NCBI GenBank assembly: GCA_011049955.1
Contig: DRGV01000054.1
Location: 1 to 31,573, forward strand
Direction: 5' to 3'
Source: a bacterium
Lineage (GTDB): Bacteria > UBP18 > UBA7526
Length of the DNA: 31,573 nt
Position 1 is the stretch's first letter; each line of letters opens with the position of its first letter. Positions 2,791 through 31,572 of the stretch are shown piece after piece. Both the position numbers and the translations under genes were made by a program. A model generated the notes under the pieces. The model ran no database searches and was not told the origin of the DNA. It saw only the letters and a list, made by a program, of their open reading frames with translations.

Positions 2791-3914
2791 ACTGTTTTTC
2801 CTAAGCTGAGGTTAGCCACAGCATTCAACAATAGGTCTGACCTGATTCTCTCCTTTAGCTTATAATAACCACAGCAGGCGATCATGGCTGCATTATCTGT
2901 GCATAATTCTTCCCGTGGAAATATGAGTCTTATGTCTCTTGCTGTTGTTTCTTCTCTTAGTCTCTCTCTCAAACGGCTATTCGCAGCCACTCCCCCGGCC
3001 AAGACAATTCTTTCTACTCCCTTTATCTTCGCTGCCCTCAGGGTATTCTTGATAAGCATATCAACAATCGCTTCCTGGAAACTGGCCACAATATTGCATA
3101 GTAGCTTATTGCTCGTCGCCCATTTCGTTTGTCGCTTGTCGCCCGTCCCGATTTCATCGGGACTCTGTCGCTCGTCGTTTTTAAGCAACATGTGACTTGC
3201 GATTTGCGACCTGCGACCTGCGACCTGCGACCTGCGACCTGCGATGTAGTTGACAACTGCCGTTTTTATTCCACTGAAGGAGAAATCAAGCGTCTCTTTA
3301 GCCTTGAAGCAGGACCTGGGGAAGGAGATTGCTTTTGGATTCCCTTTCTTCGATAATGTGTCTATAATGGGCCCCCCTGGATAGCCTAATTTCAGGAACT
3401 TTGCTATCTTATCAAAGGCCTCTCCTGGTGCATCGTCCCTGGTTCTTCCCATTACCTCGTACTTTCCATGATCCTTAACATAGACCAAGTCTGAATGGCC
3501 ACCAGAGACGATTAATGCTAAGAAGGGAAACTTTAAGGAAGGATGTTCTAAGTAATTAGCATAGATATGGCCCTCCAAGTGATTGATACCTACAAAAGGG
3601 AGGTTATCAGCATAAGCAATAGCCTTTGCTGTAGAGAGACCGACTAACAATGCTCCTACCAGACCCGGACCATAGGTTACCGCTATCCCATCCAGATCAG
3701 AGAAACCAATCTTTGCTTCCGATAATGCCTCAGATATGACAGGATTTATTAATTCCAGGTGTTTCCGGGAAGCGATCTCAGGAACTACCCCCCAGAACTT
3801 CCTATGAATAGCAACCTGAGAAGCAATGACATTCGATAGAATCCTCTTGCCATCCTTCACTACCGATGCTGCCGTCTCATCACAAGAGGTCTCAATTCCT
3901 AAGATAAGCATCAC
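2787..3914 (-). CDS. tsaD: tRNA t6A synthesis protein TsaD, carrying a repeat-derived insertion
   Basis: [27 protein letters not shown] (HxxxH), [34 protein letters not shown]. Confidence 0.96.
3097..3248. repeat. In-frame repeat/palindrome insertion in tsaD: gtcgc arms, a gtcccgat-ttc-atcgggac hairpin and a (ctgcgac)n array
   Basis: Seven near-perfect heptamers at 3197-3245, encoding [13 protein letters not shown]. Confidence 0.9.
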
Positions 3915-3919
3915 ATCCC

Positions 3920-4110
3920 CCGAAGTAACCAGTAACCAGTTTACAGTAATCGAAAATTACAAGCACCAAGCACCAAATTACAAACAAATTCCAATTACCA
4001 AAATCATAATGACCAAAACAAAGAACTTGTAACGGGTTTTTGTTTGGAATTTCGGTCATTTGGTCATTGTATATTGTTTGTGATTTGTAATTTGGGATTT
4101 GGGATTTCAT
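3920..4110. repeat. Long imperfect palindrome of caaat/atttg heptamer arms
   Basis: 4048-4087 matches the reverse complement of 28404-28443 at 39 of 40 nt. Confidence 0.88.
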
Positions 4111-4116
4111 CCACAG

Positions 4117-5253
4117 CTATTCAAGTAATTCTGAAACCAGGACAAATTCTATTCCCTGGTTCTCCAACTCCGGAATGGCCTCTTTAATGGCTCGAATGGT
4201 GGGAAGATGGGGATGGCCGATGGCGATTGCCTGCCCCTCATTCAGGGCTATTTTAGCCAGAAGACGAATCTGTCCCTTGATGTAATCGAGATCGATCTCA
4301 TTATCTAAAAAGACGTTTCTCTTTCCACATTTAAGGCCGAGTTTCTTGGCTTCTCTATAAGCAACGGATTCGTCAGAGGTCTTACTATCTATGAAGAAGA
4401 GGTTTCTTTTCTTTAACTCTTTTAATATTAGATTTATGATTTCTTTATCTTCTGTCAGGCGGGAACCCATATGGTTATTCACTCCCTGAACGTAGGGAAT
4501 ACCAGAAAGATCCTGGGCGATTATCTTTGCTATCTCTCTTCGGGGAGTACTCATGAGAATGGCACCCTTTCCCGGGTCCTTATCTGAAGCCGGATATCCC
4601 TTTGGCTCCATAGGAAGATGAAGCATAACTAAAAAACCTCTTTTCTTTGCTTCTATAGCAGTATCTTTAGAATGGGGTAAAAATGGCAGGATGGAGAAGT
4701 TCAACGGACGATCCATAGCCAAGAGTTCCCTCGTTGTCCTTCCTCCCATCCCCAAGTCATCGATGATAATGGCTATCCTGGCTTTCGGTTGCTCTAAGAT
4801 GAGCGTCTGGATGGGAATCTTCCTCACCCCGATTTTCATGCTGAGAATTTTTTTTCCTTTAATTTCTCCCTCTTTGACCTTGATTATTCTTCCACCTTCT
4901 CTTTTTACTGCTTGGCTAACTGCCTTCTCATACTTCTTTAAAGACTCTTTAGGAGATATTCTTACCCTTTTTGTAATATGGGTCCACTCTATCTCTCCCT
5001 TCTTTCTCTTTTCCTTTTTCTTCTCGATAATGTCCTGGCGGCCTACTCCCAGTTCAGCCAGTCTCTCATCAATGGCGGAATCTATCTCCCTTGCCTTTGC
5101 CTCATAATCTATCCTCTTCAACCAGTCAAAGAGAGTTACCCTTCCCATCTGCTGATAATCAATCCAGAAACAGGCAAAGAGAAGTCCTAAAATAGCAATG
5201 ATAATTACTATCTTCAAAAATTTATACTTTTTTTCAATCATCCTTGACCCCAT
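4117..5253 (-). CDS. Divergent polysaccharide deacetylase family (YibQ-like), N-terminal membrane anchor
   Basis: IAIIIDDLG, VMLHLPMEP, GVNNHMGS, FFIDSKT, VFLDN, AIAIGHP. Usual position downstream of ctpA. Confidence 0.92.
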   Translation of the reverse strand: MGSRMIEKKYKFLKIVIIIAILGLLFACFWIDYQQMGRVTLFDWLKRIDYEAKAREIDSAIDERLAELGVGRQDIIEKKKEKRKKGEIEWTHITKRVRISPKESLKKYEKAVSQAVKREGGRIIKVKEGEIKGKKILSMKIGVRKIPIQTLILEQPKARIAIIIDDLGMGGRTTRELLAMDRPLNFSILPFLPHSKDTAIEAKKRGFLVMLHLPMEPKGYPASDKDPGKGAILMSTPRREIAKIIAQDLSGIPYVQGVNNHMGSRLTEDKEIINLILKELKKRNLFFIDSKTSDESVAYREAKKLGLKCGKRNVFLDNEIDLDYIKGQIRLLAKIALNEGQAIAIGHPHLPTIRAIKEAIPELENQGIEFVLVSELLE

Positions 5254-5279
5254 CGATAATTTCTACTAGTGCATTGGCT

Positions 5280-5353
5280 GGCGCTTCAAGCCTCAGGTCT
5301 CAGGCTGCAGGCGACAATAAAAAACTTGCAGCTTGAAGCTTGTAGCCGGAAGC
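5280..5353. repeat. Imperfect palindrome, (a/g)gc(c/t)t heptamer family
   Basis: gcttcaagc (5283-5291) pairs with gcttgaagc (5331-5339). Related elements at 12460-12565 and 27545-27606. Confidence 0.75.
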
Positions 5354-5358
5354 AGTTA

Positions 5359-6795
5359 CTATTTGCCTGCTTGGGCTAAGGTCCTATGGGAGAGCTCTTC
5401 TTTGATTACCTCTACTGCTTTCTGAAACTGGATATCTCCGTCCCTGGTAATCTCATAGGCTATTCTTTCTCCCAGGGCCTGCCTTGTTATAGCAATTCTC
5501 AACTCTCTCTTAATTTCAGGGGTCGCCGATTTCCACTCCTTCTCTTTAAGATCAAACTTCTTCTCTTTCAAGAACAAAGAAAACTCGTCCAGATACGCAA
5601 GCTTAACTCTGAATTCCTTATTTACATCAGGATGAATAAGGAGATACTTCTGGCTAAAACCTCTGAAGTATCCCTTGCTGGCGATCTTAGAGACTATCTT
5701 GGGAAGAGTGGGTAATTTCACTTCGATGTCCGGGTCGATTCCCTTTTCATCGATGTTCCTCCCTTTCGGGGTGAGGTAATAAGCGGTAGTAAGCCTCAAG
5801 CCTGAACCATCCTCTAAGGTCAATACGCTCTGTACCCTCGCCTTACCAAAGGACTTCTCTCCAATGATAGTCCCTCTCCCATAATCCTGAATAGCGCCGG
5901 CCACTACCTCAGAGGCAGAGGCACTCCCCTTATTGATGAGCACTACTAAGGGATAATCAGGATGGGGCACTTCACTTGAAAGATATTTCAAATTCTGAGA
6001 AGAGATTCTTCCCTCTGTGGAAACGATCAGACTATTCTTAGGGAGAAACTTATCACAGACTTCTACCGCCTCATTCAATAGCCCCCCGTGGTTATTGCGC
6101 AAATCAAGGATTAGGCCTTGCATCCCTTCTTTCTCTAATTCTTTTAGGGCTATTTCTAAATTTTTACCTGCCGACTTTTTGAATTCTCTGATTCGAATGT
6201 AGCCGATCTTATCCTCTGTCAGAAAAGAATAGGGAATGCTCTTTACTATGATTACGCCGCGGACGATAGTAAACTCCAAAGGTTCATCAATCCCTTCCCT
6301 TTCTATAGTTAAGACAACAGAGGTCCCCTTTTTACCTCTCATCTTTTTGACCGCATCCTGTAAGGTGATATCCTTGGTCGATTCTCCATCTATTTTTACA
6401 ATTCTATCTCCAGCCTGAATTCCGATCTCATATGCCGGAGTCCCCTCAATGGGGGAGACAACGGTGAGTTGCCCATCCCTTATCCAGATACTTATCCCCA
6501 ATCCCTCAAACTTCCCCTCTGTCTCAATCTGCATCTCCCTATAGGTCTCAGGGTCCATGAACTGAGAGTAGGGGTCTAAGGTCTTCATCATTCCCTTCAG
6601 GGCCCCGTAGATCAAGTCCCTGGTCTTCACTTCCTTAATATAGTTTGACTTGACCAGGGAGAGGACCTTGGAGAAGAGGCCAATATACTTATAGGTCTCC
6701 CTCCTCTCGTTTACCTTGCCAGATATTCCTCCCCCAACAATAAGGATCATTACAATTGTCAAAATTACAATCTTTATTCCATTCTTTCTCTTCAT
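5359..6795 (-). CDS. ctpA: C-terminal processing peptidase, S41A family, with PDZ domain
   Basis: LDPYSQF, GLGISI (PDZ), ILDLRNNHGG, GSASASEVVAGAIQD (catalytic Ser), FGK (Lys), LRLTTAYYLTP. RBS ggagg precedes the ATG at 6795. Confidence 0.94.
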   Translation of the reverse strand: MKRKNGIKIVILTIVMILIVGGGISGKVNERRETYKYIGLFSKVLSLVKSNYIKEVKTRDLIYGALKGMMKTLDPYSQFMDPETYREMQIETEGKFEGLGISIWIRDGQLTVVSPIEGTPAYEIGIQAGDRIVKIDGESTKDITLQDAVKKMRGKKGTSVVLTIEREGIDEPLEFTIVRGVIIVKSIPYSFLTEDKIGYIRIREFKKSAGKNLEIALKELEKEGMQGLILDLRNNHGGLLNEAVEVCDKFLPKNSLIVSTEGRISSQNLKYLSSEVPHPDYPLVVLINKGSASASEVVAGAIQDYGRGTIIGEKSFGKARVQSVLTLEDGSGLRLTTAYYLTPKGRNIDEKGIDPDIEVKLPTLPKIVSKIASKGYFRGFSQKYLLIHPDVNKEFRVKLAYLDEFSLFLKEKKFDLKEKEWKSATPEIKRELRIAITRQALGERIAYEITRDGDIQFQKAVEVIKEELSHRTLAQAGK

Positions 6796-6814
6796 CTTTA
6801 CCTCCATATAATAA

Positions 6815-7092
6815 AAGTTTATACGTTAATAAGTAAATACGTTTATGCGTTGATGCGTTAGACCCGTTAAACCCGTTGACCTGTTAAACCCGCTTCTTAT
6901 TCTTTACGGGCTAACCGGTATAACAGGCAAAACGGGCTCAACGTCCTTTGCATAACGCATTCCACATTTTTCATTGATCTTCTGCCCTTTCACCGTTTCC
7001 CCGTTTCTCCTTTTCTCCGCTTCTCACTTTCCCACCTGCCCACTTTCTTATTTTGAGCGAAGCGAAAAACAAGGTTCTGCTTTAGCAGGTTC
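6815..7092. repeat. Intergenic stack of repeats (tacgtt; aacccg/cgggc hairpin; ttccccgt and tttcccac; gagcgaagcg)
   Basis: aataagtaaatacgtt matches the reverse complement of sequence near 826-841. cctgtta/taacagg arms. ttttgagcgaagcgaaaaacaagg. Confidence 0.8.
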
Positions 7093-8307
7093 TTATTTTC
7101 TCAGCCAGTGCAAGGGATTTAAGGGGGCACCATCCTTTCTTATCTCAAAGTAAAGATAGGACCCTTTCTTTGAAGCCGTTTGGCCCACCTTACCAATCAA
7201 TTTTCCTCCTTCTACCTCCTGATTTTCTTTAACCAGGATGCTATCCAAGTGGGCATAGAGGGTATAATAACCTCCCCCATGAGCAATCATGACCATCTTT
7301 CCATATTCTCTTAAGCCTGGCTTCTGCGACCATTGGGCAAAGACTATGCTTCCCTTCGATACCGCCCACACCTCTGCTCCCTGAGGAGCCTTAATATCAA
7401 TCCCCTTATGAAAGGTATATGTCTTATACTGAGGATGTTGATGTTTTCCATAGGTCTTGGTTACCTGGTGGCTTATGGTCGGCCAGGGAAGGCGCCGCTT
7501 CTTCTGCCTGAAGGCTAAAGAGGCGAGCCGGGCCTGCTCTATAGTCTCCTTCTTCTTGACTTCCAGATTTCTAATCAGGGCCTCCAGTTCCTTTGAGGCC
7601 TTCTTGAGTTTTCTAACTCTTTTCTGATAGGCGATCCTTTCTTTCTCTGTCTTGGTTAAGAGCGTTTCCTTTACCCTCTTATTCTTCTCTATCTCGCCCT
7701 TTCTCTTTAAAGCTGTCTCTTTATAAGTAGTAATTCGTGTCCTTTTCTCCTCCAGACTCTTCTTCTCTCTTTCTATTCCCTTCTTTTTCTCTTCATCCCT
7801 GACTAACTCATCAGCATCGCAGGAGGCAGTAATATTCATAGATTTTTTCTGCAGAATCTTTTGAGAAAAATTGTGGGGATAAGGGAGGCTCTTTCTCTTA
7901 TAGATAATGATTAATCTTTCTCCCAGCGTACCCTGACTGGTTCTCAAGTTTTCGGTCGCCTCTCCTAAGTTCTCTTCCTTCTTCTCTAATTTTTTCTTGG
8001 TCTTCTTTAGGTTTTCGTCATAGATAATAATCTCTTTCTTCTTTACTTCCAAATGCTTCTTGATTTTATCCAGTTTAATACGGAGATTCCTTTCCTGAAT
8101 CCTTTTCTTCTCTAACTTCTTCTTCTCGGTGGTAAGTTCCTTCTTTGCTTTCGTCTTCTCTCTCTCCTTCTCCTGAATCTTTTTATCGTACTCCTTAATT
8201 TTCTCCTCATAAAGAGCGAAAGCAGAAACAGTAAACAGTGAACAGTGAACAGTGAACAACAAGATAAAAAGTAAGCCGTAAACCGTAAACCGTAAACCAT
8301 AAACCAT
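7093..8307 (-). CDS. envC: EnvC-like murein hydrolase activator: coiled coil plus M23/LytM domain
   Basis: Signal peptide, long K/E coiled coil, HKGIDI, YAHL, and YLYFEIR in place of HxH (degenerate, as in EnvC). Directly follows ftsX (TAGATG). Confidence 0.88.
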   Translation of the reverse strand: MVYGLRFTVYGLLFILLFTVHCSLFTVSAFALYEEKIKEYDKKIQEKEREKTKAKKELTTEKKKLEKKRIQERNLRIKLDKIKKHLEVKKKEIIIYDENLKKTKKKLEKKEENLGEATENLRTSQGTLGERLIIIYKRKSLPYPHNFSQKILQKKSMNITASCDADELVRDEEKKKGIEREKKSLEEKRTRITTYKETALKRKGEIEKNKRVKETLLTKTEKERIAYQKRVRKLKKASKELEALIRNLEVKKKETIEQARLASLAFRQKKRRLPWPTISHQVTKTYGKHQHPQYKTYTFHKGIDIKAPQGAEVWAVSKGSIVFAQWSQKPGLREYGKMVMIAHGGGYYTLYAHLDSILVKENQEVEGGKLIGKVGQTASKKGSYLYFEIRKDGAPLNPLHWLRK

Positions 8308-9093: not shown

Positions 9094-9112
9094 CCCGTTA
9101 GACCTCCTAAAC

Positions 9113-9240
9113 GCTGATTGTCGCTAATATAGTGCACTGATTGCCGCTGATTTCAATTACGAAGGGTTAAAGGGGTTAGGCGGGGTAAGAGGGTTAAGGG
9201 GGTAAACCCCCTCTACCCTTTTAACCCTTTTCACCCCCGT
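9113..9240. repeat. ctgatt arm plus a gggtt/aaccc palindrome
   Basis: aagggttaaa (9162-9171) pairs with tttaaccctt (9220-9229). Central aggggg-taaa-ccccct at 9197-9212. Confidence 0.8.
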
Positions 9241-9257
9241 ACTATACATCTGCGTTT

Positions 9258-9286
9258 AGTATACCACGCCTCCGAAATAATGTCAA
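9258..9286 (-). promoter_or_regulatory. Sigma70-type promoter for the ftsX-envC-ctpA operon
   Basis: Minus strand TTGACA-N17-TATACT with a TG extended -10. Confidence 0.75.
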
Positions 9287-9350
9287 AAAAAGACGCCCCT
9301 GCCCCGTTGATAGCAAAGCTTATCTACGGGGGCTTTCCTGGGCGTCTTTT
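9287..9350 (-). terminator. Long terminator-like hairpin after the TolB-like gene, enclosing a ccccgt..acgggg palindrome
   Basis: aaaagacgccc ... gggcgtctttt outer stem, T-tract on the minus strand. Confidence 0.65.
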
Positions 9351-9379: not shown

Positions 9380-10789
9380 CTAATCCGTGCTTTGGGACCA
9401 AAGATAAGGATTTGGTTTCACAATGGACCTCTCCTTTCCGGAGGAGAGTATTTGTTCCCCAATACCATCGATATTCATAATCCAGAAATAATAGTCTGTG
9501 CCTTCTATGGTCCAGAAAGCAAGATGTCTTCCATCGGAAGAGAATACCGGGCGTTCTAAAACTATTTTCGCTCTCGTCAACGACACTTGATTCTTTCCTT
9601 CCCCATTCATCATCCAGAGATCGTTGCTATTCTTCTCCTCATCCGATTTAGTAAAAACGATCTTCTCTCCATCCGATGACCAGGAAGGATAATTACTATT
9701 GCTTCCTTCTGTTAATTGTCTAAGGTCGCTACCATCCGTATTAACTATCCAGATATTATAGTTTGAGAGAAAAATAATTTTTGCCCCTTCTGGAGAAAAG
9801 GAAAATTTATCCTCGTTAAGTTCTATGTCCCCGCTCACTCTCTTCTTATTGCTTCCATCATTATCCATGGTATAGAGAGCGCCCTCTATGGCATAGGCAA
9901 TCTTTTTTCCATCTAAAGAAAACTTAAAGCCCCAGTCATTGCTCTCCCACCTATTCTTGGTCAGGGGTTTCTCTTCTTTTCCATCAGTGCCTGCCATCCA
10001 GATATCCAGGATCTTCCCCTTGCTCAGTCTATTATGAAGCAGATAATTACTATCTGGCGACCAGGCGAATGGAGACCCCAGACCAAGGCTGCTCTTCTTG
10101 GGATCCTCTGGGAAGAATATCTTGGTCTCTGTCCCCTTCTCAACATCTACTACCCGGATCTCCCCATCCTTGGAGAGGAAGGCCACCTTCCTTCCATCTG
10201 GAGAAGGCAGAGACTCATGAGAGACTACTGCTTTCCCCGTAGTCAGGGGTTTCTTGTCGCTACCGTCTCTATTCATAATCCAGAGGTCAGAATCCAGTTC
10301 AAAGATAATCTTCTCGTTTCCCTTTAACCACATGGGTTGGAAATAGTTTCCCGGGTCATGAGTTAGATTTTTTCTTCTACTTCCATCAGCATTCGCTATC
10401 CAGATATTATTTCTGTCAATATAAAGCACCTGATCTATGGTCTTAAAATAACTAATGATTAAGGGACTCCCTTTATTGTCCTTGATTGGGCTGCTTAGAG
10501 AAATGGTATAGATAGTAGAGGGAATCAGCTCTTTCGCAGGGCGAAAGACTAAGGTATTCTTTTCCCAATAAAATTCCCCCTTTATCTTAGGATTAATGAT
10601 AAAATTTTCCTCTACAGACTCCTCATCCATCTCTTTATTGAAGGTGACTCTGATTAGGGTATCGGTCTTTATTCCTCTATCTCCTTTAGCAGGAGAAATA
10701 GAGACTATCTCAGGTGGCTGCGCCCCGACTGGAAAAGTAACAAGTAGCAAGTAACAAGTAACAAGTAAAATAAGTTTGTAGTCTTTCAT
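9380..10789 (-). CDS. Secreted protein: Ig-like (SbsA/Big_5-type) domain plus TolB-like PD40 beta-propeller
   Basis: Signal peptide (VGA/QP), PEIVSISPA..VTFNKEMD Ig-like start, repeated WSPDG/FSPEG/WSSDG-KI.F and IW..N.DGS units. Confidence 0.82.
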   Translation of the reverse strand: MKDYKLILLVTCYLLLVTFPVGAQPPEIVSISPAKGDRGIKTDTLIRVTFNKEMDEESVEENFIINPKIKGEFYWEKNTLVFRPAKELIPSTIYTISLSSPIKDNKGSPLIISYFKTIDQVLYIDRNNIWIANADGSRRKNLTHDPGNYFQPMWLKGNEKIIFELDSDLWIMNRDGSDKKPLTTGKAVVSHESLPSPDGRKVAFLSKDGEIRVVDVEKGTETKIFFPEDPKKSSLGLGSPFAWSPDSNYLLHNRLSKGKILDIWMAGTDGKEEKPLTKNRWESNDWGFKFSLDGKKIAYAIEGALYTMDNDGSNKKRVSGDIELNEDKFSFSPEGAKIIFLSNYNIWIVNTDGSDLRQLTEGSNSNYPSWSSDGEKIVFTKSDEEKNSNDLWMMNGEGKNQVSLTRAKIVLERPVFSSDGRHLAFWTIEGTDYYFWIMNIDGIGEQILSSGKERSIVKPNPYLWSQSTD

Positions 10790-13243: not shown

Positions 13244-13273
13244 TCCGCCAGAGGCGAATCCGCCTCTGGCGGA
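13244..13273. repeat. REP-like perfect hairpin
   Basis: tccgccagaggcg-aatc-cgcctctggcgga: 13-bp stem. Confidence 0.9.
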
Positions 13274-13284: not shown

Positions 13285-13610
13285 CAACTGATTAACTGGC
13301 AAACTGGCTAACTGGTCAACTACTAAATATATGTTACCACAAATTCTTTAAAATATCAATCTCAAATCTAACTTTTGCAAATTTGCCGTTTATCGTTAAT
13401 AAAAGTTTGTCGTTGTTGATGCGCGTAACGATGCTCGTTGTAGAAACTCGATGCTTGATTTTCTTCCCTTTCTTTAGCACAATCCAGCGTCGAGCTTCCA
13501 GATTCAAGCCTCGATACGAGTTTCGAAAACGTTAAATCTGTTTCTATACCTTTTTCTCACCTGCTCACTTTCCCACTTTCTCTGATTCCCTGATATCCTG
13601 ATAACCTGAC
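13285..13610. repeat. Intergenic repeat stack (aactgg; ctcgat/tcgag hairpin; tttcccac; cctgat)
   Basis: aactggcaaactggctaactggt; aaactcgat ... acgagttt; 30-mer at 13553-13582. Confidence 0.75.
13331..13360 (-). promoter_or_regulatory. Possible promoter for the LPP20 genes
   Basis: Minus strand TTGATA-N18-TAACAT with a TG extension. Confidence 0.4.
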
Positions 13611-14864
13611 CTAATCTCCTCCCCTCTTCCTCACCTTATCCTTAACCTTTATCTTATTCTCCGGGTCCTCCTTTATTACTTCAGCAATGGACATCTTCTC
13701 CGAAACTTTATTCACCTTAATCTTACCTATTCTTTCCTCCTCTGTCCCAATCACCTCATCCGTTACCGGATGTTTTATGGCCACTTCCCGATAGACGATG
13801 AAGACTTCTCCTACACCTACTTCGTGCTTCTTGCCCAGGTCAATATAGACCATATCACCCTTTCTTCTAATGACCATCTTCAAAGAGCCGGTAGCCAGAT
13901 ACTCCCCACGGGCTTTATCGTGGGCCTTCTTTAAATCCACTAAATTCTTCTTATATCTCTTCTCCTTGGGATCTAACTTACTTGCCTTTTGGTATTCTCT
14001 TCTCGCCTTAGCGACCTCCCCCTTCCTCTCATGGGCAATCCCTAAGTTATTATGAGCCCAGGCATTCTTGGGGTCCTTCTCCAGGGCCTTCTGCCACTCC
14101 CCAATGGCCGCATCCCACATCCCCATCTTGGCAAATCTCACCCCTTGCTTGGTATAGAAAGAGTCCTTCCCCTTCTCCAGTTTCCTTTTCTTGTTTATAT
14201 AATGAGGGGAGACCTCGCTCACAAACCGGGAGGTTACTTTCCTTAGAAGATCATTTAAGATGGAGCCATCTGAGGGGAGTTTAAAGAAGGCGCTATCGTA
14301 ACGCTTCTTATTGAAATCCTTTAAGATAGATTTTGCTGCAATTACTCTTCCCGTCTCAATATTTATCATCCGATAACTTACCGCCACACTTCCACTCTTC
14401 ATGGTATAGTTACGGTAGATGGGAGGAATATAGATCCCACTTTCTTTATCATAATATCCTGGGGTAGCTAAGGTTCGACCCCTAATCGTCTCTACATCAT
14501 ATCCCGAGACCGTCCCAAAGATTACCGCATCTACTCCTAATATCTGCCCCATCCTCCTAATAGTGGCATCGGAGACCATTCCTGAGAGATTGAACCTATG
14601 CTCTTGCACCACCTCATCAATCCTCTGTCTCTCTACAATCTCATAGAATCCGGGCTCTAAGAGACCGGAGACAAGTAAGTCAGAAGCTGCCCTCCCCGAT
14701 TCCGGACGACCACCATAGCTCTTGAAGTCCAGAATAGCAACCCTCTTTACTCCCCTGATGTCCCTATAGGCCCTATCCAGCCTCTGGAACCTTACCTTGG
14801 TTGTGGCACATCCCATAAGAAAGAGAACTAGAATCAGCGAACCAATCAATAATCTTCTCTTCAT
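13611..14864 (-). CDS. CsgG/HfaB-like lipoprotein with TPR repeats and a FlgT-C-like C-terminal domain
   Basis: Lipobox FLMG-C, RVAILDF..FYEIVERQRIDEV..GQILGVDAVIFGTV, AHNNLGIAH (TPR), VYIDLG..GEVFIVYRE..HPVTDEVIG. Confidence 0.75.
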   Translation of the reverse strand: MKRRLLIGSLILVLFLMGCATTKVRFQRLDRAYRDIRGVKRVAILDFKSYGGRPESGRAASDLLVSGLLEPGFYEIVERQRIDEVVQEHRFNLSGMVSDATIRRMGQILGVDAVIFGTVSGYDVETIRGRTLATPGYYDKESGIYIPPIYRNYTMKSGSVAVSYRMINIETGRVIAAKSILKDFNKKRYDSAFFKLPSDGSILNDLLRKVTSRFVSEVSPHYINKKRKLEKGKDSFYTKQGVRFAKMGMWDAAIGEWQKALEKDPKNAWAHNNLGIAHERKGEVAKARREYQKASKLDPKEKRYKKNLVDLKKAHDKARGEYLATGSLKMVIRRKGDMVYIDLGKKHEVGVGEVFIVYREVAIKHPVTDEVIGTEEERIGKIKVNKVSEKMSIAEVIKEDPENKIKVKDKVRKRGGD

Positions 14865-14904
14865 AAATCACCACTTAAAATCCTACAATAATTTCTCTGA
14901 AAAG

Positions 14905-16407
14905 TCAAAGTTCTTCCTTTAATAGTTTATTGACTATCTGAGGATTGGCTCTTCCCTTTGTCTCCTTCATCACTTGACCAACTAGATAGCCTAAGGCCTT
15001 CTCCTTCCCTTTCTTATAATCCTCAACTACCCTGGGGTTCTCTTTCAATATCTTATCAACTATCTTAGTAAGTGCTTCTTCATCGCTTATCTGAACCAGG
15101 CTCCTCTTCTTTATAATCCAGGAGGCCTTCTCTCCTGTCTCAAACATTTCAACAAAAACCTCCTTAGCCATCTTTCTTGAGAGAATCCCCTTATCTATCA
15201 GGGTCATCATCTCTGCTAATGCTTGAGGTCTGGCCTTACACTCTTCTATTCCAATATTCCCCTCCTTCAATTCCCTCAATAGTTCACTCATTATCCAATT
15301 AGCAATTTCCTTATTGAACTTGCGACCTGCGACCGGCGACCTGCGATCTGCGACCGGCGACCTGCGAGCTGCTTCTATGCATTCCTCATAATAATCTGCC
15401 AACTCCTTAGAAGAAGTCAAAATCCCAGCATCATAATCTGGAATCTTGTAATCCCTTGAAAAGCGTGCCTTTCTCGCCTCTGGCAATTCAGGGAGACTCT
15501 TTCTGATTCTCTCAGTCCATTCTCTATCAATCTCCATAAGAACTAAGTCTGGCTCGGGAAAGTATCTATAATCGTGAGCCTCTTCCTTGGTCCTCATAGA
15601 AATAGTAATCTCCTTATTCTCATCCCAGAGCCTGGTTTCCTGAACGATTCTTTTCCCTTCTTCTAATGCTTTAATCTGTCTACGCATCTCATATTCTAAG
15701 GCTTTCTCCACTGCCTTGAAGGAGTTCATATTCTTAATCTCCACCTTCACACCCAGTTCTTTCCCCGTTTCCCCGTTTCCCCGTTTCCCCGTTTCTTCTT
15801 TTGACGGTCTGACGGAAATATTAGCATCACACCTCAAAGACCCCTCTTCCATATTGCAATCACTGACCCCAATATACTGCAGGATACTCTTTAAAATCGC
15901 TAAAAACTCACGGGCCTCTCTAGGACTTTTAATATCCGGTTCAGTGACGATCTCAATTAGGGGGACGCCGCATCTATTGAAATCGATTAAGGTAGAATCT
16001 TTTACTTCCTCATGTAATAACTTCCCGGCATCCTCTTCCAGATGAACCCTGGTAATTCTGATTTTCTTTAATTTTCCATCGGTAATAATATCTACAAAGC
16101 CTTTACTGGAAAGGGGCTCCTCATACTGCGATATCTGATAACTCTTGGGTAGGTCAGGATAGAAGTAGTTCTTCCGAGCAAAGATGGATTCTTTCGCAAT
16201 CCGACAGTCGAGAGCTAAGGCAGCCTTAATAGCATACTCCAGGGCGGTCTTGTTCAAAACAGGCAAAACACCAGGAAGCCCCAGGCATACCGGACAGACC
16301 TGAGAATTAGGAAGCGCCCCGAACTCTGTGGAACAGGAACAGAATATCTTAGACTTCGTCTTCAGTTGAACATGAACCTCTAAGCCGATAATGGCTTCGT
16401 ACCCCAT
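14905..16407 (-). CDS. gatB: Asp/Glu-tRNA amidotransferase subunit B
   Basis: [68 protein letters not shown]. Confidence 0.98.
15320..15368. repeat. (c[t/g]gcga[c/t])x7 in frame in gatB
   Basis: Seven heptamers encoding [16 protein letters not shown]. Confidence 0.92.
15761..15792. repeat. (ttccccgt)x4 in frame in gatB
   Basis: Perfect octamer array encoding [12 protein letters not shown]. Confidence 0.92.
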
Positions 16408-16430
16408 TACTAACTCCTTAAAATTTTTTC

Positions 16431-16459
16431 TTGCAACTGATTTAAAAATGTGCTAATAT
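16431..16459 (+). promoter_or_regulatory. Probable glnA promoter
   Basis: TTGCAA-N17-TAATAT with a TG extension. RBS aggagg follows before the ATG at 16493. Confidence 0.5.
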
Positions 16460-16492
16460 GTAATAAGCCTTGTATCATATTAGGAGGAGAAG

Positions 16493-17821
16493 ATGAAGTG
16501 TAAGGATGCCAGCGAAGTATTAAAGGTAGTCCGGGAGAAGAAAGTAAAGTTTGTCCAGCTATGGTTTACCGATATCCTGGGCTTCTTAAAAACCGTCTCC
16601 ATTACCATCCGGGAGCTACCCGAGGCCCTGGAAAGCGGAACAGGATTCGATGGTTCTTCTATTGAGGGCTTTGCCCGGATTGAAGAGAGCGACATGATAG
16701 CTAAGCCGGATCCCACTACCTTCCAGATCCTTCCCTGGAGACCTTCTCGCCAAGTGGTGGGACGAATGTTCTGTGACATCCTGACACCAGAAGGTACCCC
16801 TTACGAGGGTGACCCCCGTTATGTATTAAAAAGGAATCTGGAGAAGGCCAGAAAGAAAGGTTTTATCTGTTACCTGGGACCGGAATTAGAATATTTCTAT
16901 TTTAAAAATGCAAAAGGTATCGAGCTGCTGGACCGTGCCGGCTATTTCGACCTCACCCCGGCAGATATGGCTAAGGATTTGCGTAGTAAAACCGTAACCA
17001 CTCTGGAGGAGATGGGTATCCCCATGGAATGTAGTCATCATGAGGTAGCTCCTAGTCAGCATGAACTGGATTTCAAATTTCAGGAAGCCCTAATCACTGC
17101 TGATAACGTAATAACCTACCGCTTGGTCACTAAAGAAGTGGCCCGCCGGCAGGGAGTATATGCCACCTTTATGCCTAAACCCATCTCTGGGATAAATGGA
17201 AGTGGAATGCATGTCCATCAATCACTCTTCAAGGGCAAAAGGAATGCCTTCTTCAACCCCAAAGATAAATATCACCTCTCTAAAGTGGGAAAGAAATTCC
17301 TGGCCGGCTTGCTGCGCCACTCCCGGGAAATTACCTCTATTACCAATCAGTGGGTCAATTCCTATAAAAGGCTCATTCCCGGTTATGAGGCTCCAGTCTA
17401 TATCTGCTGGGGACAACGCAATCGCTCTGCTTTAGTAAGAGTGCCCCATTACAAGCCTGGAAAGGAAATAGCTACTCGGTTAGAGTTACGCTCTCCCGAT
17501 CCCGCCTGCAACCCTTATCTTGCTTTCAGTGTCATGCTGGCTGCAGGACTAAGAGGCATAGAAAGAAATTACAAGTTAATGTCCTCCGTAGAAAGAGACG
17601 TCTACGATATGAATAGTGCAGAGAGAGCCAAGCTGGGTATAGAATCCCTCCCAGAAGACCTTCACGAAGCGATTACTGAAACAGAAAAGAGTTCCTTGGT
17701 AAAAGAGGCTTTAGGAAAACATATCTTTCAACAATTTATTGCCAATAAAAAGATTCAGTGGGATGAATATTGCCGCCAGGTCACCCAGTACGAACTGAAG
17801 CGATATTTACCCATCCTTTAA
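16493..17821 (+). CDS. glnA: Glutamine synthetase type I (short, about 440-aa form)
   Basis: FDGSSIEGF, GPELEYFYF, HHEVAPSQHE, FMPKPISGINGSGMHVHQSL, PGYEAP, NRSALVRVP, ELRSPDPACNPYLAF. Confidence 0.97.
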   Translation: MKCKDASEVLKVVREKKVKFVQLWFTDILGFLKTVSITIRELPEALESGTGFDGSSIEGFARIEESDMIAKPDPTTFQILPWRPSRQVVGRMFCDILTPEGTPYEGDPRYVLKRNLEKARKKGFICYLGPELEYFYFKNAKGIELLDRAGYFDLTPADMAKDLRSKTVTTLEEMGIPMECSHHEVAPSQHELDFKFQEALITADNVITYRLVTKEVARRQGVYATFMPKPISGINGSGMHVHQSLFKGKRNAFFNPKDKYHLSKVGKKFLAGLLRHSREITSITNQWVNSYKRLIPGYEAPVYICWGQRNRSALVRVPHYKPGKEIATRLELRSPDPACNPYLAFSVMLAAGLRGIERNYKLMSSVERDVYDMNSAERAKLGIESLPEDLHEAITETEKSSLVKEALGKHIFQQFIANKKIQWDEYCRQVTQYELKRYLPIL

Positions 17822-17842
17822 ATTCTTTTAGAATTTCTTTTT

Positions 17843-17872
17843 AAAAGGGCGCGCCCTTGCGCGCCCTTTTTT
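17843..17872. terminator. Bidirectional terminator between glnA and gatA
   Basis: aaaagggcgcgc-cctt-gcgcgccctttttt: 12-bp stem. Confidence 0.88.
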
Positions 17873-17873
17873 A

Positions 17874-19340
17874 TTATATCCTAGGCTTCCGCTTATGCCA
17901 GTCCGTATGTTGTTCGTAGGTATGGGCAACTCTAAGGATGGTCTCTTCAGCAAAGGGCTTGGTTAATATCTGCAGTCCTATGGGAAGATCCGCTTTTGTG
18001 AAACCACAGGGGATGGAGATTCCCGGGATCCCGGCTAAGTTAGTAGAGATGGTAAAGATATCAGAGAGATACATCTTCAGAGGATCATCGATCTTCTCCC
18101 CAATCTTAAAGGACGGGGTGGGACTGGTCGGAGTAATGAGGCAGTCGCATTTCTCAAAGGCCTTATCAATATCCTCCTTGACCAATGTTCTCACCTTCTG
18201 GGCCTTGAGGTAATAGGCATCATAATAGCCGGCAGATAGAGCATAGGTCCCCAACATTATCCTCCTCTTTACTTCATCCCCAAACCCTTCCCCTCTTGTT
18301 TCCTCATACATTTCTATCAACGACCTGTGACCTGCGACCTGCGACCTGCGACCATATTTCACTCCCTCATACCTTGCTAAATTGGAAGAGGCCTCGGCAG
18401 TAGCGAGCAGATAATAGACGGCAACCGCATACTCCGTATGAGGTAAAGAGATCTCCTCTATCTTCGCACCTAACTTCTCCAATAACCTTATGGCATCCTT
18501 TACAGATTTCTCTACCTCTTCATCCATTCCCTTGACAAAATACTCCTTAGGGACGCCGATTCTTACTTCTTTAATATCGTTTATTAAGGATTTTGTATAA
18601 TCTGGAACAGGATAGTCGCAAGAAGTAGAGTCCCTCTCATCGTAACCGCTTATGAGATTCATTAGCAATGCACAATCTCTAATATCCTTTGTTAGTGGAC
18701 CGATTTGATCTAAAGAAGAAGCAAAGGCCACTAGCCCATATCTCGATACCCTTCCATAGGTTGGCTTCAGACCCACTACTCCGCAGAGACTGGCCGGCTG
18801 TCTAATGGAGCCGCCGGTATCGCTCCCCAAGGCGAGGATGGCCTCGTCACTGGCTATCGCTGCTGCCGAACCACCGCTCGAGCCTCCGGGAATGGTCTCT
18901 AAATTCCAGGGGTTGTGGGTAATCTTAAAGGCAGAGTTTTCTGTGGAAGAGCCCATGGCAAACTCATCCATATTTGTCTTCCCAATAAATACTAAATCGT
19001 TCTCTTTTAATCTTTTAATTACTGTGGCATCATAAGGGGATTTAAAGTTCTCCAATATCTTTGAAGAGCAGGTAGTCAAAACTCCATCGATACACATGTT
19101 ATCCTTGATGGCTATGGGCACTCCGGCCAATGGAGAAATCTTCTCTTTCTTCCTTATTTTCTCATCAACCAACCTTGCCTGTTTCAGAGCCTCATCCTTT
19201 ATCAAAGTAACAAAAGAGTTAATCGTTTTTTCTACCTTCTCTATCCTCTTAAAGACGCTCTTCGTCACTTCCTCAGAAGAAACCTCCCCCTTCTTAATCA
19301 ACTCCCCTATCTCATGCGCCGTCAACTCATTCAGTTTCAC
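17874..19340 (-). CDS. gatA: Asp/Glu-tRNA amidotransferase subunit A
   Basis: [45 protein letters not shown] (amidase signature), [11 protein letters not shown]. Confidence 0.98.
18318..18352. repeat. (ctgcgac)n in frame in gatA
   Basis: Three perfect units (18332-18352) plus two degenerate units, encoding [11 protein letters not shown]. Confidence 0.85.
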
Positions 19341-19350
19341 TTATTCTTCC

Positions 19351-27778: not shown

Positions 27779-28321
27779 CTATCTACCACACTCACCTGTT
27801 TCCCCTTTTAATATTTCAATTCCGTGCTTCAGTGCTGGTAGAATAACCTCAAGGTTTTCTCTAACGGCCTTGGGGCTTCCTGGCAGGTTAACGATGAGGC
27901 TCTTCTTTCGTGTTCCCACTATTGCTCGGGAAAGCATGCTGAAGGGGGTCTTCTCCAATCCCTTTATTCTCATAGCTTCTACGAAACCAGGTACTTCCTT
28001 CTCAATTACCTCTTTCGTTGCCTCTGGAGTAACGTCTCTTGGCCCAATTCCTGTTCCTCCACTGGTCAGGATCAGATCTATACTGTCTTTATCCACCCAC
28101 TCTTTTAATCTTCTACAGATTATCTCTTTTTCATCGGGTATAATTTCATACTTGATAACTTGATAGATTGCCTGCCCCGTAGGAGTCTGACCGCCTCTGG
28201 CGGACGGACGACTTTTCGGGGGTAGTTTAGAAATTATTTTCCTGATTGCTGGACCGCTCTCATCCTTCCTCTCTCCCCGTGAAGCCTTATCACTGATAAC
28301 TAATATCCCTACTTTAATCAT
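27779..28321 (-). CDS. mog: Molybdopterin adenylyltransferase, MogA/MoaB family, with an insertion
   Basis: ILVISDKASRGER.DESG, IIPDE, LILTSGGTGIGPRDVTPEAT, LSRAIVG, VNLPGSPKAV. Confidence 0.9.
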   Translation of the reverse strand: MIKVGILVISDKASRGERKDESGPAIRKIISKLPPKSRPSARGGQTPTGQAIYQVIKYEIIPDEKEIICRRLKEWVDKDSIDLILTSGGTGIGPRDVTPEATKEVIEKEVPGFVEAMRIKGLEKTPFSMLSRAIVGTRKKSLIVNLPGSPKAVRENLEVILPALKHGIEILKGETGECGR

Positions 28322-28339
28322 GTTTACTCCTTAAAGAAT

Positions 28340-28522
28340 TCAATGATTAGAATGGATTAGTAGGGAATAGCACGGAAATCTTTAAATCACAAGCACCAAA
28401 TCACAAATCACAGACAATATACAATGACCAAATGACCGAAATTACAAATACTGGTTTTGGACATTGTAATTTTGAATTTGTAATTTGTTTGGGATTTGGA
28501 ATTTGTTATTTGGAATTTACCA
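28340..28522. repeat. cacgga arm plus a second caaat/atttg palindrome
   Basis: Homologous to 3950-4110 in inverted orientation (39/40 nt block). Confidence 0.88.
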
Positions 28523-28529
28523 ATCCCTA

Positions 28530-29006
28530 CTAGTCCCTTCTGACGAAGGTTCCGCTCTTTCCTCCGGTCTTCTTAAGTAACTTCACATCTGAGATGACCA
28601 TTCCCCTATCTACTGCCTTGCACATATCGTAGATGGTTAAGGCACTGATACTTGCTGCTATTAAGGCCTCCATCTCCACCCCAGTCCTTCCCAGACACTT
28701 CACCTTTGAAATTATTTTGATTCTATTCTTTCCTTTTAAGTCAAAAGTAATATCGATATTGCTGATTTCCAAGGGATGACACATGGGAATGAGTCCACTT
28801 GTCCTTTTGGCAGCCATGATTCCCGCCACTTTGGCCACAGATAAGACATCCCCTTTTGCCATTTTACCCTCTTTGATCATCTTTAGAGTCTCAGGCTTCA
28901 TAATGACATCCGCAGAAGTTATTGCCTCTCTTTTGGTTACTTTCTTCCCACTGACATCTACCATCTTAGCCCTTCCCTCTCTATCAAAATGCGTTAATTG
29001 TCCCAT
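28530..29006 (-). CDS. moaC: Cyclic pyranopterin monophosphate synthase MoaC
   Basis: [60 protein letters not shown] aggagg. Confidence 0.97.
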
Positions 29007-29062
29007 TCCCTACCTCCTAAAACCCGTGCTCATCCGTAAAGAATCCGTACTCATCCGTGTTT

Positions 29063-30058
29063 TCAGCCTCCTATCTTAGACATAACCTGATTATTTCCTT
29101 TAATGGAATGCTTCTCTGGTTTATTCTTTAAGGCCTTCTCAAATAGTTCCCTGATTTCCTTGCTACCTGCTCCGCTTCGTAGAGACCTCTTAATATCTAC
29201 TCCATAATCTGAGAAGAGGCAGGGATATAATCTTCCATCCGCTGTTAACCTTAAGCGATTACAGGTAGCACAGAAATGCTCACTCATAGGCGTTATAAAA
29301 CCAGTGGTCCCCAAAGATTTTTCAAACTTAAAAGACTTCGCTGGTCCCACTCCCCTCACTTGAGCCGGAATTAATTCTCCCAATTCTTTTAGTCCTTCTT
29401 TAACAGTAGAAGCGGAAACAAACTCAAAAGATGATTTCTGCGCCTTTGCGTTTGATTCTGCGCCTTTGCGGTTGCAAAAAGGCATATATTCAATGAATCT
29501 AATATGCAATGGTCGATCCAGGCTCATCCGGGCAAAGTCCAAAACCTCATCATCATTTATTCCCTTCATAACCACAACATTTATCTTCACTGGCTCAAGG
29601 CCCCTCTTCAATGCTTCCTCTATCCCATCTAAAACAAGAGATAGTCTTTCCGCCCTGGTAATGCGATTAAACTTATTGGCATCCCGACTATCCAGACTAA
29701 TATTTATCCTCTGCAGCCCGGCATTCTTTAAATCCCGGGCATAATCTTTTAAGAGGATCCCATTTGTAGTCATGCTCAAATCGCTAACTCCTTTAAGATT
29801 AGCAAGCATCTCTACTAAATAGACCACGCCCTTTCTCACTAAAGGCTCACCACCAGTAATCCTGACCTTATCAATCCCCCAATCTATACCATACCTTACT
29901 ATCTCTTTTACCTCCTCAAACCTCAGGATATCCTCATGTCTTAAGGGTTTAATCCCTTCGGAAGGCATGCAGTAGATGCATCTCAGATTGCACCTATCGG
30001 TAACAGAGACTCTTAAATAACTAATCTTCCGATTATATCTGTCAATTAATCCTTTCAT
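29063..30058 (-). CDS. moaA: GTP 3',8-cyclase MoaA (radical SAM)
   Basis: YLRVSVTDRCNLRCIYC, RITGGEPL, TTNG, RFIEYMP, FCATCNRLR..PCL, C-terminal IGG. ATG at 30058 overlaps the upstream stop (ATGA). Confidence 0.97.
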   Translation of the reverse strand: MKGLIDRYNRKISYLRVSVTDRCNLRCIYCMPSEGIKPLRHEDILRFEEVKEIVRYGIDWGIDKVRITGGEPLVRKGVVYLVEMLANLKGVSDLSMTTNGILLKDYARDLKNAGLQRINISLDSRDANKFNRITRAERLSLVLDGIEEALKRGLEPVKINVVVMKGINDDEVLDFARMSLDRPLHIRFIEYMPFCNRKGAESNAKAQKSSFEFVSASTVKEGLKELGELIPAQVRGVGPAKSFKFEKSLGTTGFITPMSEHFCATCNRLRLTADGRLYPCLFSDYGVDIKRSLRSGAGSKEIRELFEKALKNKPEKHSIKGNNQVMSKIGG

Positions 30059-31572
30059 TTTAAACTCTCTAAAAGAGTTCTTGCTTCTGAGATATGGGGA
30101 CAATACTTCTGAGAAAGTAAAAGCGCTTCTCTTGCCTCTTTCTCCTTCCCTTTCCGAAATAATAGCAGAGCCTGGAAGTAATAATGGTAGCCCTCCATGA
30201 CCCTTCTATAGAAGTCATCCGTCCCTTGTCCCAGCTCCTTGAATATTTTCTCATCAAAGAGGGGATGATATTCTCTAATCTGAATCCCTTTCTCTTTTCC
30301 TATATGATAGATGCGATAGAAGTAATTTTCATATACTAAGGTAAAGTTCTCTAATTTCTCAGGGGCAAAGTGAAGCCTGTAGGCTGCCCAGTTCTCATCT
30401 AAATCCATCCTATTGGCCACATACCTATAGGACATTAAAGGATCGGTTCGTAGGAGTTGATCGCCACGATAGATGAGATAATCCACCTTATATTCCTTGC
30501 AGAGGTCTACTAAATCCTTTTCCTTCTTAAAGAGAGCCAGAACGTACTTTTTGTAGGCTTCTCTTATCCCGGACTCAAAGTAACAGTGAAGAACGCTTGG
30601 CCTATTGCTATAAGCTGCGATCTGTGGAGAAAGAGAGAGGGGAACGAGAAAGGCATCTTGAGGCTCGGTATTCTCCCTTATCCAAAAAAGGACCTTTCTT
30701 ATTGCCAATCTATTGCCACTGGGAGGAAACTCCAGTGGCCTTATTCCTACCTTTAGCATCCCCTTTACCAGAAAGGAATTTTGCCAGGAGAGGGTCTGAT
30801 AGATCTGGAAGGAGAGGCCAATTAAGAGTAGAGAAAGGATAAGAATCCTTGAGAGACGCTCCCTGGCGAGAACAAATAGATAGGCGATGAAAATGACTAA
30901 GAAAAAGATGAAGAAGGTCTTAAGTTTATAGAACAGAAGATAACAGCCGAAAAAGGCAAAAAGAGCATAAAGGAGGAAACTGTTCTCCAGAGCAATCTTC
31001 TTCTGAAAGAGTCTTTTGAGAAAGGTAAAGACAGGATAAGAAGCCAAAAGAATGAGGACTAAAAACTCGTTCAAGAATCTAAAGAGAGTGGGCGAGAAAT
31101 AGGGAGGGGTCCAGTAGTGGCGGGCCTCAAAGGAAAGAAGAGAGGGATCAAGTGGTTTCACTCCCAGATATCTTATTTTATAGAGTACCGTCTGCCAGAC
31201 ATGGTTATACTGCCCGGTCCTGGGAAAGAGGAAAAAGAGACCTATTGCTATAACAAGAAAAAGGACTATACTTTCTACCCTGTTTCTCGCTTTTCCACCT
31301 GCCCATTTTCTTACTTTCCCACTTTCCCCTGTTTCCCCCTTTTTACGCCACTCTCTCCAGCCCCAGGAAGCAAGAAGAGAATAGGATAAGAGCATAGGAA
31401 GAGAAAAGATGAAGTAGTCTGTCCTTAAGCTTGTGGGAAGGACTAAGGCACCAACGAGATTAATCGCAGTAAAAAATCCCAGAGCCTGCATAGTCAGGTA
31501 GTATCTATTACTGAAGAGATAGACAAGGAAGATATAACCGAAGAGAATGAGGTAGTAGAACCGAGCCAGTTT
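30055..31572 (-). CDS. Polytopic membrane protein, GT-C glycosyltransferase superfamily (STT3/DPY19-like), 5' end outside the window
   Basis: Frame is open to the window edge (KLARFYYLILFG...). Many TM helices, then a soluble WIRENT..RPSVLH..Y.VDYLI..F.LVYEN domain and a TPR-like end. Confidence 0.6.
   Translation of the reverse strand, partial: KLARFYYLILFGYIFLVYLFSNRYYLTMQALGFFTAINLVGALVLPTSLRTDYFIFSLPMLLSYSLLASWGWREWRKKGETGESGKVRKWAGGKARNRVESIVLFLVIAIGLFFLFPRTGQYNHVWQTVLYKIRYLGVKPLDPSLLSFEARHYWTPPYFSPTLFRFLNEFLVLILLASYPVFTFLKRLFQKKIALENSFLLYALFAFFGCYLLFYKLKTFFIFFLVIFIAYLFVLARERLSRILILSLLLIGLSFQIYQTLSWQNSFLVKGMLKVGIRPLEFPPSGNRLAIRKVLFWIRENTEPQDAFLVPLSLSPQIAAYSNRPSVLHCYFESGIREAYKKYVLALFKKEKDLVDLCKEYKVDYLIYRGDQLLRTDPLMSYRYVANRMDLDENWAAYRLHFAPEKLENFTLVYENYFYRIYHIGKEKGIQIREYHPLFDEKIFKELGQGTDDFYRRVMEGYHYYFQALLLFRKGKEKEAREALLLSQKYCPHISEARTLLESLK

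Follow-up and report, generated by a model that had tools for sequence, protein, structure and literature searches.

Tandem repeats and palindromes lie in frame in conserved genes of an uncultivated, small-genome bacterial phylum

How do conserved housekeeping genes come to contain, in reading frame, the kind of short tandem repeats and palindromes that also lie between genes? The question is raised by the window studied here, a stretch of 31,573 nucleotides (contig C54) from an uncultivated bacterial phylum with small genomes, in which almost all genes lie on the minus strand. An earlier note, made from the letters of the window, had placed such repeats in nine genes, namely tsaD, gatB, gatA, pcrA, mutM, holB, mog, moaA and the last open reading frame (ORF), and had proposed that an active system of several element families creates new peptide loops in essential proteins. 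Comparison of sequences with relatives and outgroups confirms the in-gene repeats of eight of these genes as derived insertions, and, by sequence similarity, those in tsaD and mutM are copies of dispersed palindromic families that are otherwise intergenic, which is new here. The window belongs to genome G000, a short-read metagenome-assembled genome (MAG) of 785 kb (112 contigs, 53% complete, 44% G+C). Its source run is SRR1555744 (PRJNA259156), from a project cited by two papers for the Lokiarchaeum sediment metagenome of Loki's Castle. Six species genomes (G000 to G005, 53-93% complete) represent the phylum, all from a single family.

Pfam profiles bear out the gene names (TsaD, GatB, GatA, a TatD-PcrA fusion, Fpg/MutM, HolB, Mog, MoaA and an M23 peptidase). 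In all nine named genes the positions obtained with Tandem Repeats Finder (TRF), ORF calling, folding and repeat searches agree on repeat or palindrome DNA in frame, and every ORF stays open. Four relatives supplied contigs syntenic with the window, and 21 of its proteins were aligned with the orthologous sequences; G001 served as the same-genus relative, G003 as the sister genus, and solved structures from other phyla gave the outgroup direction (Aquifex GatB 3h0l_B and GatA 3h0l_A, Geobacillus MutM 1l1t, Thermus MoaB/Mog 2is8, and 1tv7 for MoaA). Eight of the nine genes carry a lineage-specific insertion (+5 to +38 amino acids [aa]) that is absent from the sister genus and, where compared, from the outgroup structures. 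DNA alignment of G000 with G003 leaves gaps of 108, 54, 15, 54, 24 and 57 nt in mutM, pcrA, holB (where 15 nt add 5 aa), mog, moaA and the last ORF, respectively, each a multiple of three. The two Cys pairs of the MutM zinc finger are 44 residues apart in G000 versus 8 in Geobacillus MutM, and Thermus MoaB/Mog is without the 18 residues of the mog insert. In GatB, insert 1 is missing from the Aquifex protein and from G002 and G003; insert 2 is likewise missing from the Aquifex protein and the sister genus, and is 21 nt shorter in the same-genus relative. The proposed new peptide segments are thus seen as insertions in eight genes; in gatA the array mostly overwrites native sequence and lengthens the protein by a net 2 aa or so.

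The relatives have insertions of their own at other sites. G003 has them in tsaD, the TolB-like gene, pcrA and holB; one of those in pcrA is an array of the GGGAAAGT octamer family, to which the last-ORF array of the window also belongs, at a different site. G001 has them in gatB (+8 aa) and gatA (+43 aa). Insertion is thus at work throughout the family. The 43-aa insertion in gatA of G001 (C37, L022; RQRRISLGLKPVSQSRQSEEKGVGISAPLRSASRQDRQVDRQTGR) lies at precisely the site of the short GCAGGTC array of G000.

What are the inserts made of? In the tsaD insert a central palindrome (gtcccgatgaaatcgggac) separates an (AGGTCGC)n arm from a (GCGACnn)n reverse arm. Five further copies of this 142-nt element, with 73-82% identity, lie on C106, C70, C111, C102 and C72, four between genes and the fifth overlapping a gene start. 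The mutM insert combines a 22-nt palindrome (CCAGGCACC...GGTGCCTGG), flanked by CTGTG/CTGTA, with one dispersed element of about 85 nt; its intergenic copies on C69 and C42 share 92% identity with it, and more copies lie on C44 (three), C111 and C71. Direct repeats of the CTTTATTA type enclose every copy of the mutM element; CTTTATT is present once at the empty site of G003 and twice, on either side of the element, at the filled site. These boundary repeats may represent either a target-site duplication with target preference or the termini of the element. A third family, palindromic and about 130-155 nt long, combines arms of heptamer periodicity with a variable loop; it has at least 31 BLAST matches in the 785-kb assembly, and an alignment of 16 copies shows ragged ends. 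Multi-copy families of the kind known from Rickettsia palindromic elements (RPE) are thus found for the tsaD and mutM elements, and predicted hairpins for tsaD, mutM, pcrA and holB, with folding energies (raw values for these in-gene stretches) of -55, -44, -34 and -21 kcal/mol, respectively. At C44:2228-2448, three head-to-tail copies of a mutM-type element of about 82 nt share the CTTTATTA boundary, which indicates that dispersed elements are able to form tandem arrays themselves.

Shorter units are shared between genes and intergenic DNA as well. The earlier note had listed several such motifs, and we recovered CCGCCTCTGGCGG at 13260 and 28191, CCTGCCCCGT at 9298, 25333 and 28171, TTCCCCGT at 6997 and 15761-15785, and TTTCCCAC at 7028, 13569 and 31315. 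The octamer unit of gatB insert 1 (as TRF unit, TTTCCCCG x4.5) recurs at 6988-7033 and on C5, C94, C13 and C37, and both motifs of the mog insert (CCGCCAGAGGCGG and ACGGGGCAGG) also occur between genes.

Across the whole genome, TRF returned 1577 rows, with dominant periods of 7 (440 rows) and 8 (336 rows). At a score of at least 40, period-7/8 arrays number 456/Mb, versus 19/Mb in 80 outgroup loci (1.3 Mb in total) and 0 in a third-order Markov simulation, a large excess over both. Merged arrays make up 4.9% of the genome and about one fifth of its intergenic DNA, and a self-BLAST of the 485 intergenic regions pairs 354 of them with another one. The unit families comprise more than 130 heptamers and more than 140 octamers, which together with the dispersed composite elements agrees with the proposal of a multi-family system. 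Heptamers recurring in tandem at many loci (for example AAATCAC with 25 arrays and AACCAGT with 20) recall the short tandemly repeated repetitive (STRR) sequences of cyanobacteria. An essentially intergenic location would be expected of arrays of that type, whereas here 81 period-7/8 arrays of this score (52 of period 7 and 29 of period 8) lie wholly within ORFs of at least 120 aa, evenly distributed along the genes. Among the 599 ORFs of at least 150 aa, 77 (13%) hold 91 internal segments that match intergenic repeats, so that at least 91 exist genome-wide; in-gene copies, as in RPE, are a feature of the genome as well as of the window. The 20 ORFs with the longest segments include miaA, rsmA, leuS, valS, proS, mfd, gyrA, a murC-murB fusion, nifS/iscS, ilvE and lpxL. 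When neighboring arrays were paired as array and reverse-complement array, 16 of 339 pairs passed at no more than one mismatch per unit; the test is too strict for arms this degenerate, about which folding and BLAST say more.

Two of these genes deserve separate mention. MiaA (C18:2082-3335, L108) has 417 aa against a profile of 288 positions, which it matches in two pieces, and its internal stretch of 346 nt has 34 matches to intergenic repeats; it is probably the largest nested in-frame insertion of the assembly. MurC and MurB are fused in a single ORF of 788 aa (C62:2476-4842, L120).

The insertions also turn over in natural populations. Public metagenomes contain about 30 MutM orthologues of the phylum (277-319 aa), whose zinc-finger site occurs in four states: empty, with the palindrome only (+9 aa), with the element only (+27 aa), and with both, as in G000. 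Other lineages have +18 or +40 aa at a second MutM site. In 24 TsaD orthologues (330-388 aa) a single loop has at least eight different repeat-coded fillings, and the outgroups have a plain short loop. The shortest filling, RIQDPGSRIQD, is the translation expected of an in-frame array of AGGATCC, a heptamer family of G000, as judged from the protein alone. Lengths within genes change in steps of 21 nt, or three heptamers, both in gatB of the same genus and between populations in pcrA, where a related population of another study is missing exactly 21 nt of the insert (at 20917). Presence, absence and content of the inserts thus differ between genera and between populations, as expected of the evolutionarily active system that had been proposed.

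Could the inserts have been introduced by assembly or binning? The window comes from a 53%-complete short-read MAG, and contigs tend to break at arrays. However, Logan contigs of the source run, produced by a second assembler, are identical to the window over 15766-28411, six inserts included, and also extend over 13501-15789; their only breaks are at arrays with further occurrences elsewhere. An independent ENA assembly likewise has a MutM of 314 aa, a run of a different study covers 24451-25263, including part of the mutM insert, with five differences, and in other samples and studies, too, the orthologues have related inserts at these sites. We regard the chance of an artifact as practically negligible.

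Where do the inserts lie in the folded proteins? AlphaFold2 models of MutM and TsaD (from alignments of 119 and 113 sequences) have a mean predicted local distance difference test (pLDDT) score of 91.5 and 91.6, respectively, with cores above 94 and inserts at 47-72. In the MutM model, residues 258-296 or so have a pLDDT of 47-63 and the zinc-finger strands at 297-301 and 304-308 are retained; in the TsaD model, residues of about 225-267 (pLDDT 49-72) lie between two long helices. For the two proteins modeled, this fits surface excursions compatible with the fold, and to that extent the predicted surface-loop location holds.

Table 1. Repeat and palindrome features of the window (positions in nt; protein changes in aa)
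Feature	Position	Strand	Change in protein	Repeat and support
tsaD insert	3099..3245	(-)	aa 226-272, net ~+38 aa	complete ~142-nt composite element
tsaD array	3194-3244			GACCTGC x7.3; TRF
Intergenic palindromic-family copy	3940..4116; second copy 28350-28529	not assigned		~130-155 nt, heptamer-periodic arms
envC (M23 peptidase), start codon and signal peptide	8212..8307	(-)		two heptamer arrays; TRF 8226-8305
TolB-like protein, signal peptide	10718..10789	(-)		heptamer array AAGTAAC on + strand; TRF 10735-10768
gatB insert 2	15316..15375 (array 15321-15372)	(-)	aa 346-363, +15 aa	(GCAGGTC/GCCGGTC) x7; TRF x7.4
gatB insert 1	15760..15798 (array 15760-15795)	(-)	aa 204-215, +11 aa	octamer array (CGGGGAAA) x4.5; TRF 100% match
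gatA heptamer array	18321..18353	(-)		GCAGGTC x4.7; TRF, 3h0l_A alignment, family alignment
pcrA insert	20900..20960	(-)	+18 aa (54 nt)	two GC-rich hairpins
mutM insert	24426..24539	(-)	+36 aa (108 nt)	inside the zinc finger, between its two Cys pairs
PSP1-domain protein, C-terminal tail	25431..25457	(-)	9 extra residues (GESGPRQARS) vs family	weak case
holB palindrome	27056..27081	(-)		perfect, 26 nt (TCCCCCACCTTTGCAAAGGTGGGGGA), within Cys-rich module
mog insert	28160..28213	(-)	+18 aa (54 nt)	CCGCCAGAGGCGG palindrome and ACGGGGCAGG motif
moaA direct repeat	29408..29474 (TRF 29436-29474)	(-)	~+8 aa	20 nt x2; G003 and 1tv7 alignments
Last ORF (polytopic membrane protein)	31288..31344 (TRF 31290-31328)	(-)	+19 aa	purine-rich octamer array (GGGAAAGT type)

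The 13 sites in the 31.6-kb window (Table 1) correspond to the density of about one per 3 kb that the earlier note had estimated. Beyond the nine named genes, repeats also make up parts of two exported proteins. The two arrays at the start of envC, of the ACGGTTT and CACTGTT types, are able to pair as a hairpin, and about 70 N-terminal aa of this protein are unconserved in the alignment with its relatives; the array in the signal peptide of the TolB-like protein is present at other loci of the genome too. The tail of the PSP1-domain protein has one 33-nt match elsewhere in the genome. TatD and the PcrA/UvrD helicase form a single frame of 1018 aa at 19740-22796 (-), which is a 983-aa gene in the independent ENA assembly. 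In G003 the PcrA match begins at residue 284 and the ORF is without a TatD part, and hence the fusion is not common to the whole family. Purine-rich octamer arrays at 719-755, 6988-7050 and 13540-13590 (GAGAAAGT/GGGAAAGT/CGGGGAAA on the transcribed strand) are nearly always co-oriented with the flanking genes and contain Shine-Dalgarno-like GGAG/GTGA cores, which makes a role in translation or RNA processing a candidate. Stop-free intergenic arrays, such as that at 3892-4110 (-), yield spurious ORFs of 60-80 aa and would inflate automatic gene counts.

Which process would produce this pattern? We hypothesize that the inserts are repeat DNA of a selfish or mutational nature, from which selection has left the survivors that are in frame, free of stops and located in loops, and we put the probability of this explanation at roughly 0.7. 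Repeats amount to roughly 5% of the DNA and are of three kinds, namely tandem arrays of 7- or 8-nt units, non-autonomous palindromic families of 85-155 nt, and small GC-rich palindromes, with the arms of some palindromic families built from the 7-/8-nt arrays. Arrays would expand and contract by slippage, single-copy palindromes would probably arise by hairpin-templated strand switching, and the dispersed families would call for a further copying or insertion process. Copies would accumulate freely in intergenic DNA. In genes, purifying selection would spare those with a length that is a multiple of three, in a stop-free orientation, and in a surface loop, terminus or signal peptide that tolerates them. 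Such copies would be translated as low-complexity, probably disordered excursions of otherwise intact enzymes.

The derived insertions, the genome-wide excess of arrays, the in-gene copies of otherwise intergenic families, the occupancy states in metagenomes, the 21-nt length steps, the low pLDDT of the inserts and the apparent lack of mismatch repair speak for this explanation. Several observations weigh against it. The inserts in holB, pcrA and mog have no other copy in the G000 genome by BLAST, and they may be local palindrome-forming mutations rather than element insertions. In the six incomplete MAGs no match to RVT_1 was found, and the TnpB zinc ribbon gave one sub-threshold match, among searches for mobilizing enzymes that did not include the DDE families. 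The RAYT/Y1 transposase (PF01797), the companion of REP/REPIN sequences, was also absent from the six phylum genomes, with positive controls. A cognate autonomous transposase, as expected for MITEs (miniature transposable elements with inverted repeats), was thus not seen among the families searched (Y1_Tnp, RVT_1 and TnpB zinc ribbon) in MAGs, which often lose insertion sequence elements. The orientation of some families relative to transcription is biased: AAAGTGAG is oriented 12:1 between genes, and GCAGGTC 7:0 within genes, where it always reads AGRRSQV. Such a bias could stem from selection, at the level of RNA or of peptide, or from a process specific to one strand, rather than mark neutral junk. 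No MutS_V or MutL (DNA_mis_repair) domain was found in the six phylum genomes, whereas 11 of 14 control genomes were positive; the phylum is therefore probably without mismatch repair, the apparent loss of which may contribute to repeat instability. However, mismatch repair of the Escherichia coli type is not expected to correct loops of 7-8 nt, so that its loss alone does not explain the period. Finally, we infer, rather than observe, the translation of the inserts, their neutral or selfish nature and the molecular mechanisms, and the first of these counts among the points on this side.

Could local mutation do everything, with all arrays and palindromes made in place by slippage and quasi-palindrome template switching, and with shared units reflecting mutational or compositional preference? 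The single-copy state of the holB, pcrA and mog inserts would suit this, as would the TsaD loop, which has a heptamer array in every phylum member with units changing in place, the overwriting by the gatA array and the apparent absence of mismatch repair. In holB, the ancestral sequence, as found in G003, is similar to the right arm of the palindrome, and the left arm could therefore be a copy of the right arm made by strand switching. However, the tsaD and mutM elements have full-length copies elsewhere (73-92% identity) with defined ends, the ~150-nt family has its many BLAST matches, and the empty and filled mutM sites differ in having one and two CTTTATT repeats. Dispersed full-length copies with conserved ends refute local mutation as the sole process, and we consider the purely local version unlikely; as one of two processes local mutation is likely. 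Rather less probable still is that the elements are functional and selected, as RNA signals (for processing, termination, mRNA stabilization or as Shine-Dalgarno-like purine arrays), contingency loci or recruited disordered regions, the last as has been suggested for the tandem repeats of Borgs. This would accommodate the orientation bias of several families, the arm pairings that depend on G-U pairs, which favors one strand over the other (as in envC), the two exported proteins with array-built signal peptides and the filling of the same protein loops in every lineage. But the sequence at each site is unconserved between species, empty states are common, also among the best-conserved relatives, and the inserts sit in unrelated housekeeping enzymes without a shared theme, with low pLDDT in the inserted parts. 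In addition, 7-/8-nt units in essential genes would cause lethal frameshifts instead of useful switching.

The inserts might also be removed from RNA or protein, in the manner of a mini-intron or intein, or bypassed like the bypassing elements of yeast mitochondria. They do form stable hairpins, and their translation is presumed. However, all of the inserts examined have lengths divisible by 3 nt and are stop-free in the frame of the host, and length variants differ by 21 nt, whereas removal or bypass would require neither frame nor stop constraint; inserts of down to 15 nt with no intein or intron features fit this idea poorly as well. We reject it as very improbable. A bolder idea, which we consider rather improbable, is that arrays and array-armed hairpins are the output of a single way of copying DNA (or of copying from an RNA template), so far undescribed and strand-oriented, that many small-genome uncultivated lineages share. 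If true, ultra-small elements, mobile or self-generating and widespread as a class, would continuously remodel the loops of essential proteins.

Why does repeat DNA in such genes matter? Core enzymes of tRNA modification, aminoacyl-tRNA synthesis, amidotransfer and DNA repair, as well as gyrase, can take up repeat-derived insertions steadily, even in zinc-binding modules. The phylum is thus a natural experiment for the tolerance of loops and the birth of disordered protein segments, and the occupancy states seen in metagenomes permit the reconstruction of single insertion events. In practical terms, the arrays break short-read assemblies, inflate intergenic ORF calls and distort phylogenomic alignments of candidate phyla.

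A literature search found no description of such repeats for this phylum, and the case joins three literatures that are usually separate, those on STRR heptamers, Rickettsia palindromes and Borg repeats. RPE comprise ten families of about 150 bp, with 44 genic copies in Rickettsia conorii, many as in-frame fusions (PMC10969869; Ogata et al. 2000 as summarized there). Like RPE, the palindromic elements described here are about 100-150 nt long, non-autonomous and of several families, lie in a small genome both between genes and in frame within housekeeping genes that are unrelated to each other, would be read as additional stretches of peptide that the fold accommodates, and belong to no known transposase, as is also true of RPE. 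Unlike RPE, they come from another phylum and a free-living sediment setting, their arms are often tandem units of 7-8 nt, pure tandem arrays and palindromes of 15-27 nt insert too, and the peptides are unconserved. With at least 91 genic segments in 0.78 Mb (in 599 long ORFs), compared with the 44 of R. conorii, their density is several times that of RPE, in line with the earlier note's impression of a density above the single-family precedent. Homology to RPE is unlikely given phylum and composition, and the likeness rests on structure and location, not on sequence comparison.

STRR heptamers are known from cyanobacteria, and TAACTGA repeats from Beggiatoaceae, cyanobacteria and Bacteroidetes, and in a sample of 24 sets from Microcystis aeruginosa 22 were intergenic and 2 lay in ORFs (PMC4679880). 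The shared features are many dispersed arrays of a few specific heptamers that are mostly intergenic, biased in orientation relative to downstream genes and occasionally present as stop-free copies in ORFs. Here, however, the unit families number more than 270, with octamers roughly equal to heptamers in frequency; many arrays pair with reverse-complement arrays into long hairpins, and dozens lie in essential genes. REP/BIME/REPIN sequences and MITEs (PMC3116915, PMC10969869) are similarly short, palindromic, dispersed and mosaic and fill intergenic DNA, and the boundary repeats of the mutM element may be a target-site duplication; in contrast to them, no RAYT was found for the elements in the six genomes, their terminal inverted repeats are not cleanly delimited, and many copies lie in frame within genes. 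Foldback (FB) transposons of Drosophila, which are eukaryotic and kilobase-sized, have long inverted arms of short tandem subrepeats; the build of the arms is alike, and no relationship is implied. In Borg genes, the unit lengths of the repeats are reportedly divisible by three, while here units have 7 or 8 nt and the frame is kept by total length only, and hairpin partners and dispersed copies are present. Borg tandem repeats create intrinsically disordered regions (PMC9879509), and the arrays described here resemble them as fast-evolving, independently arising repeats that add probably disordered segments to ORFs. What sets the present case apart is the combination of 7-/8-nt units in essential genes, arrays as the arms of dispersed hairpins, very many families and a high density.

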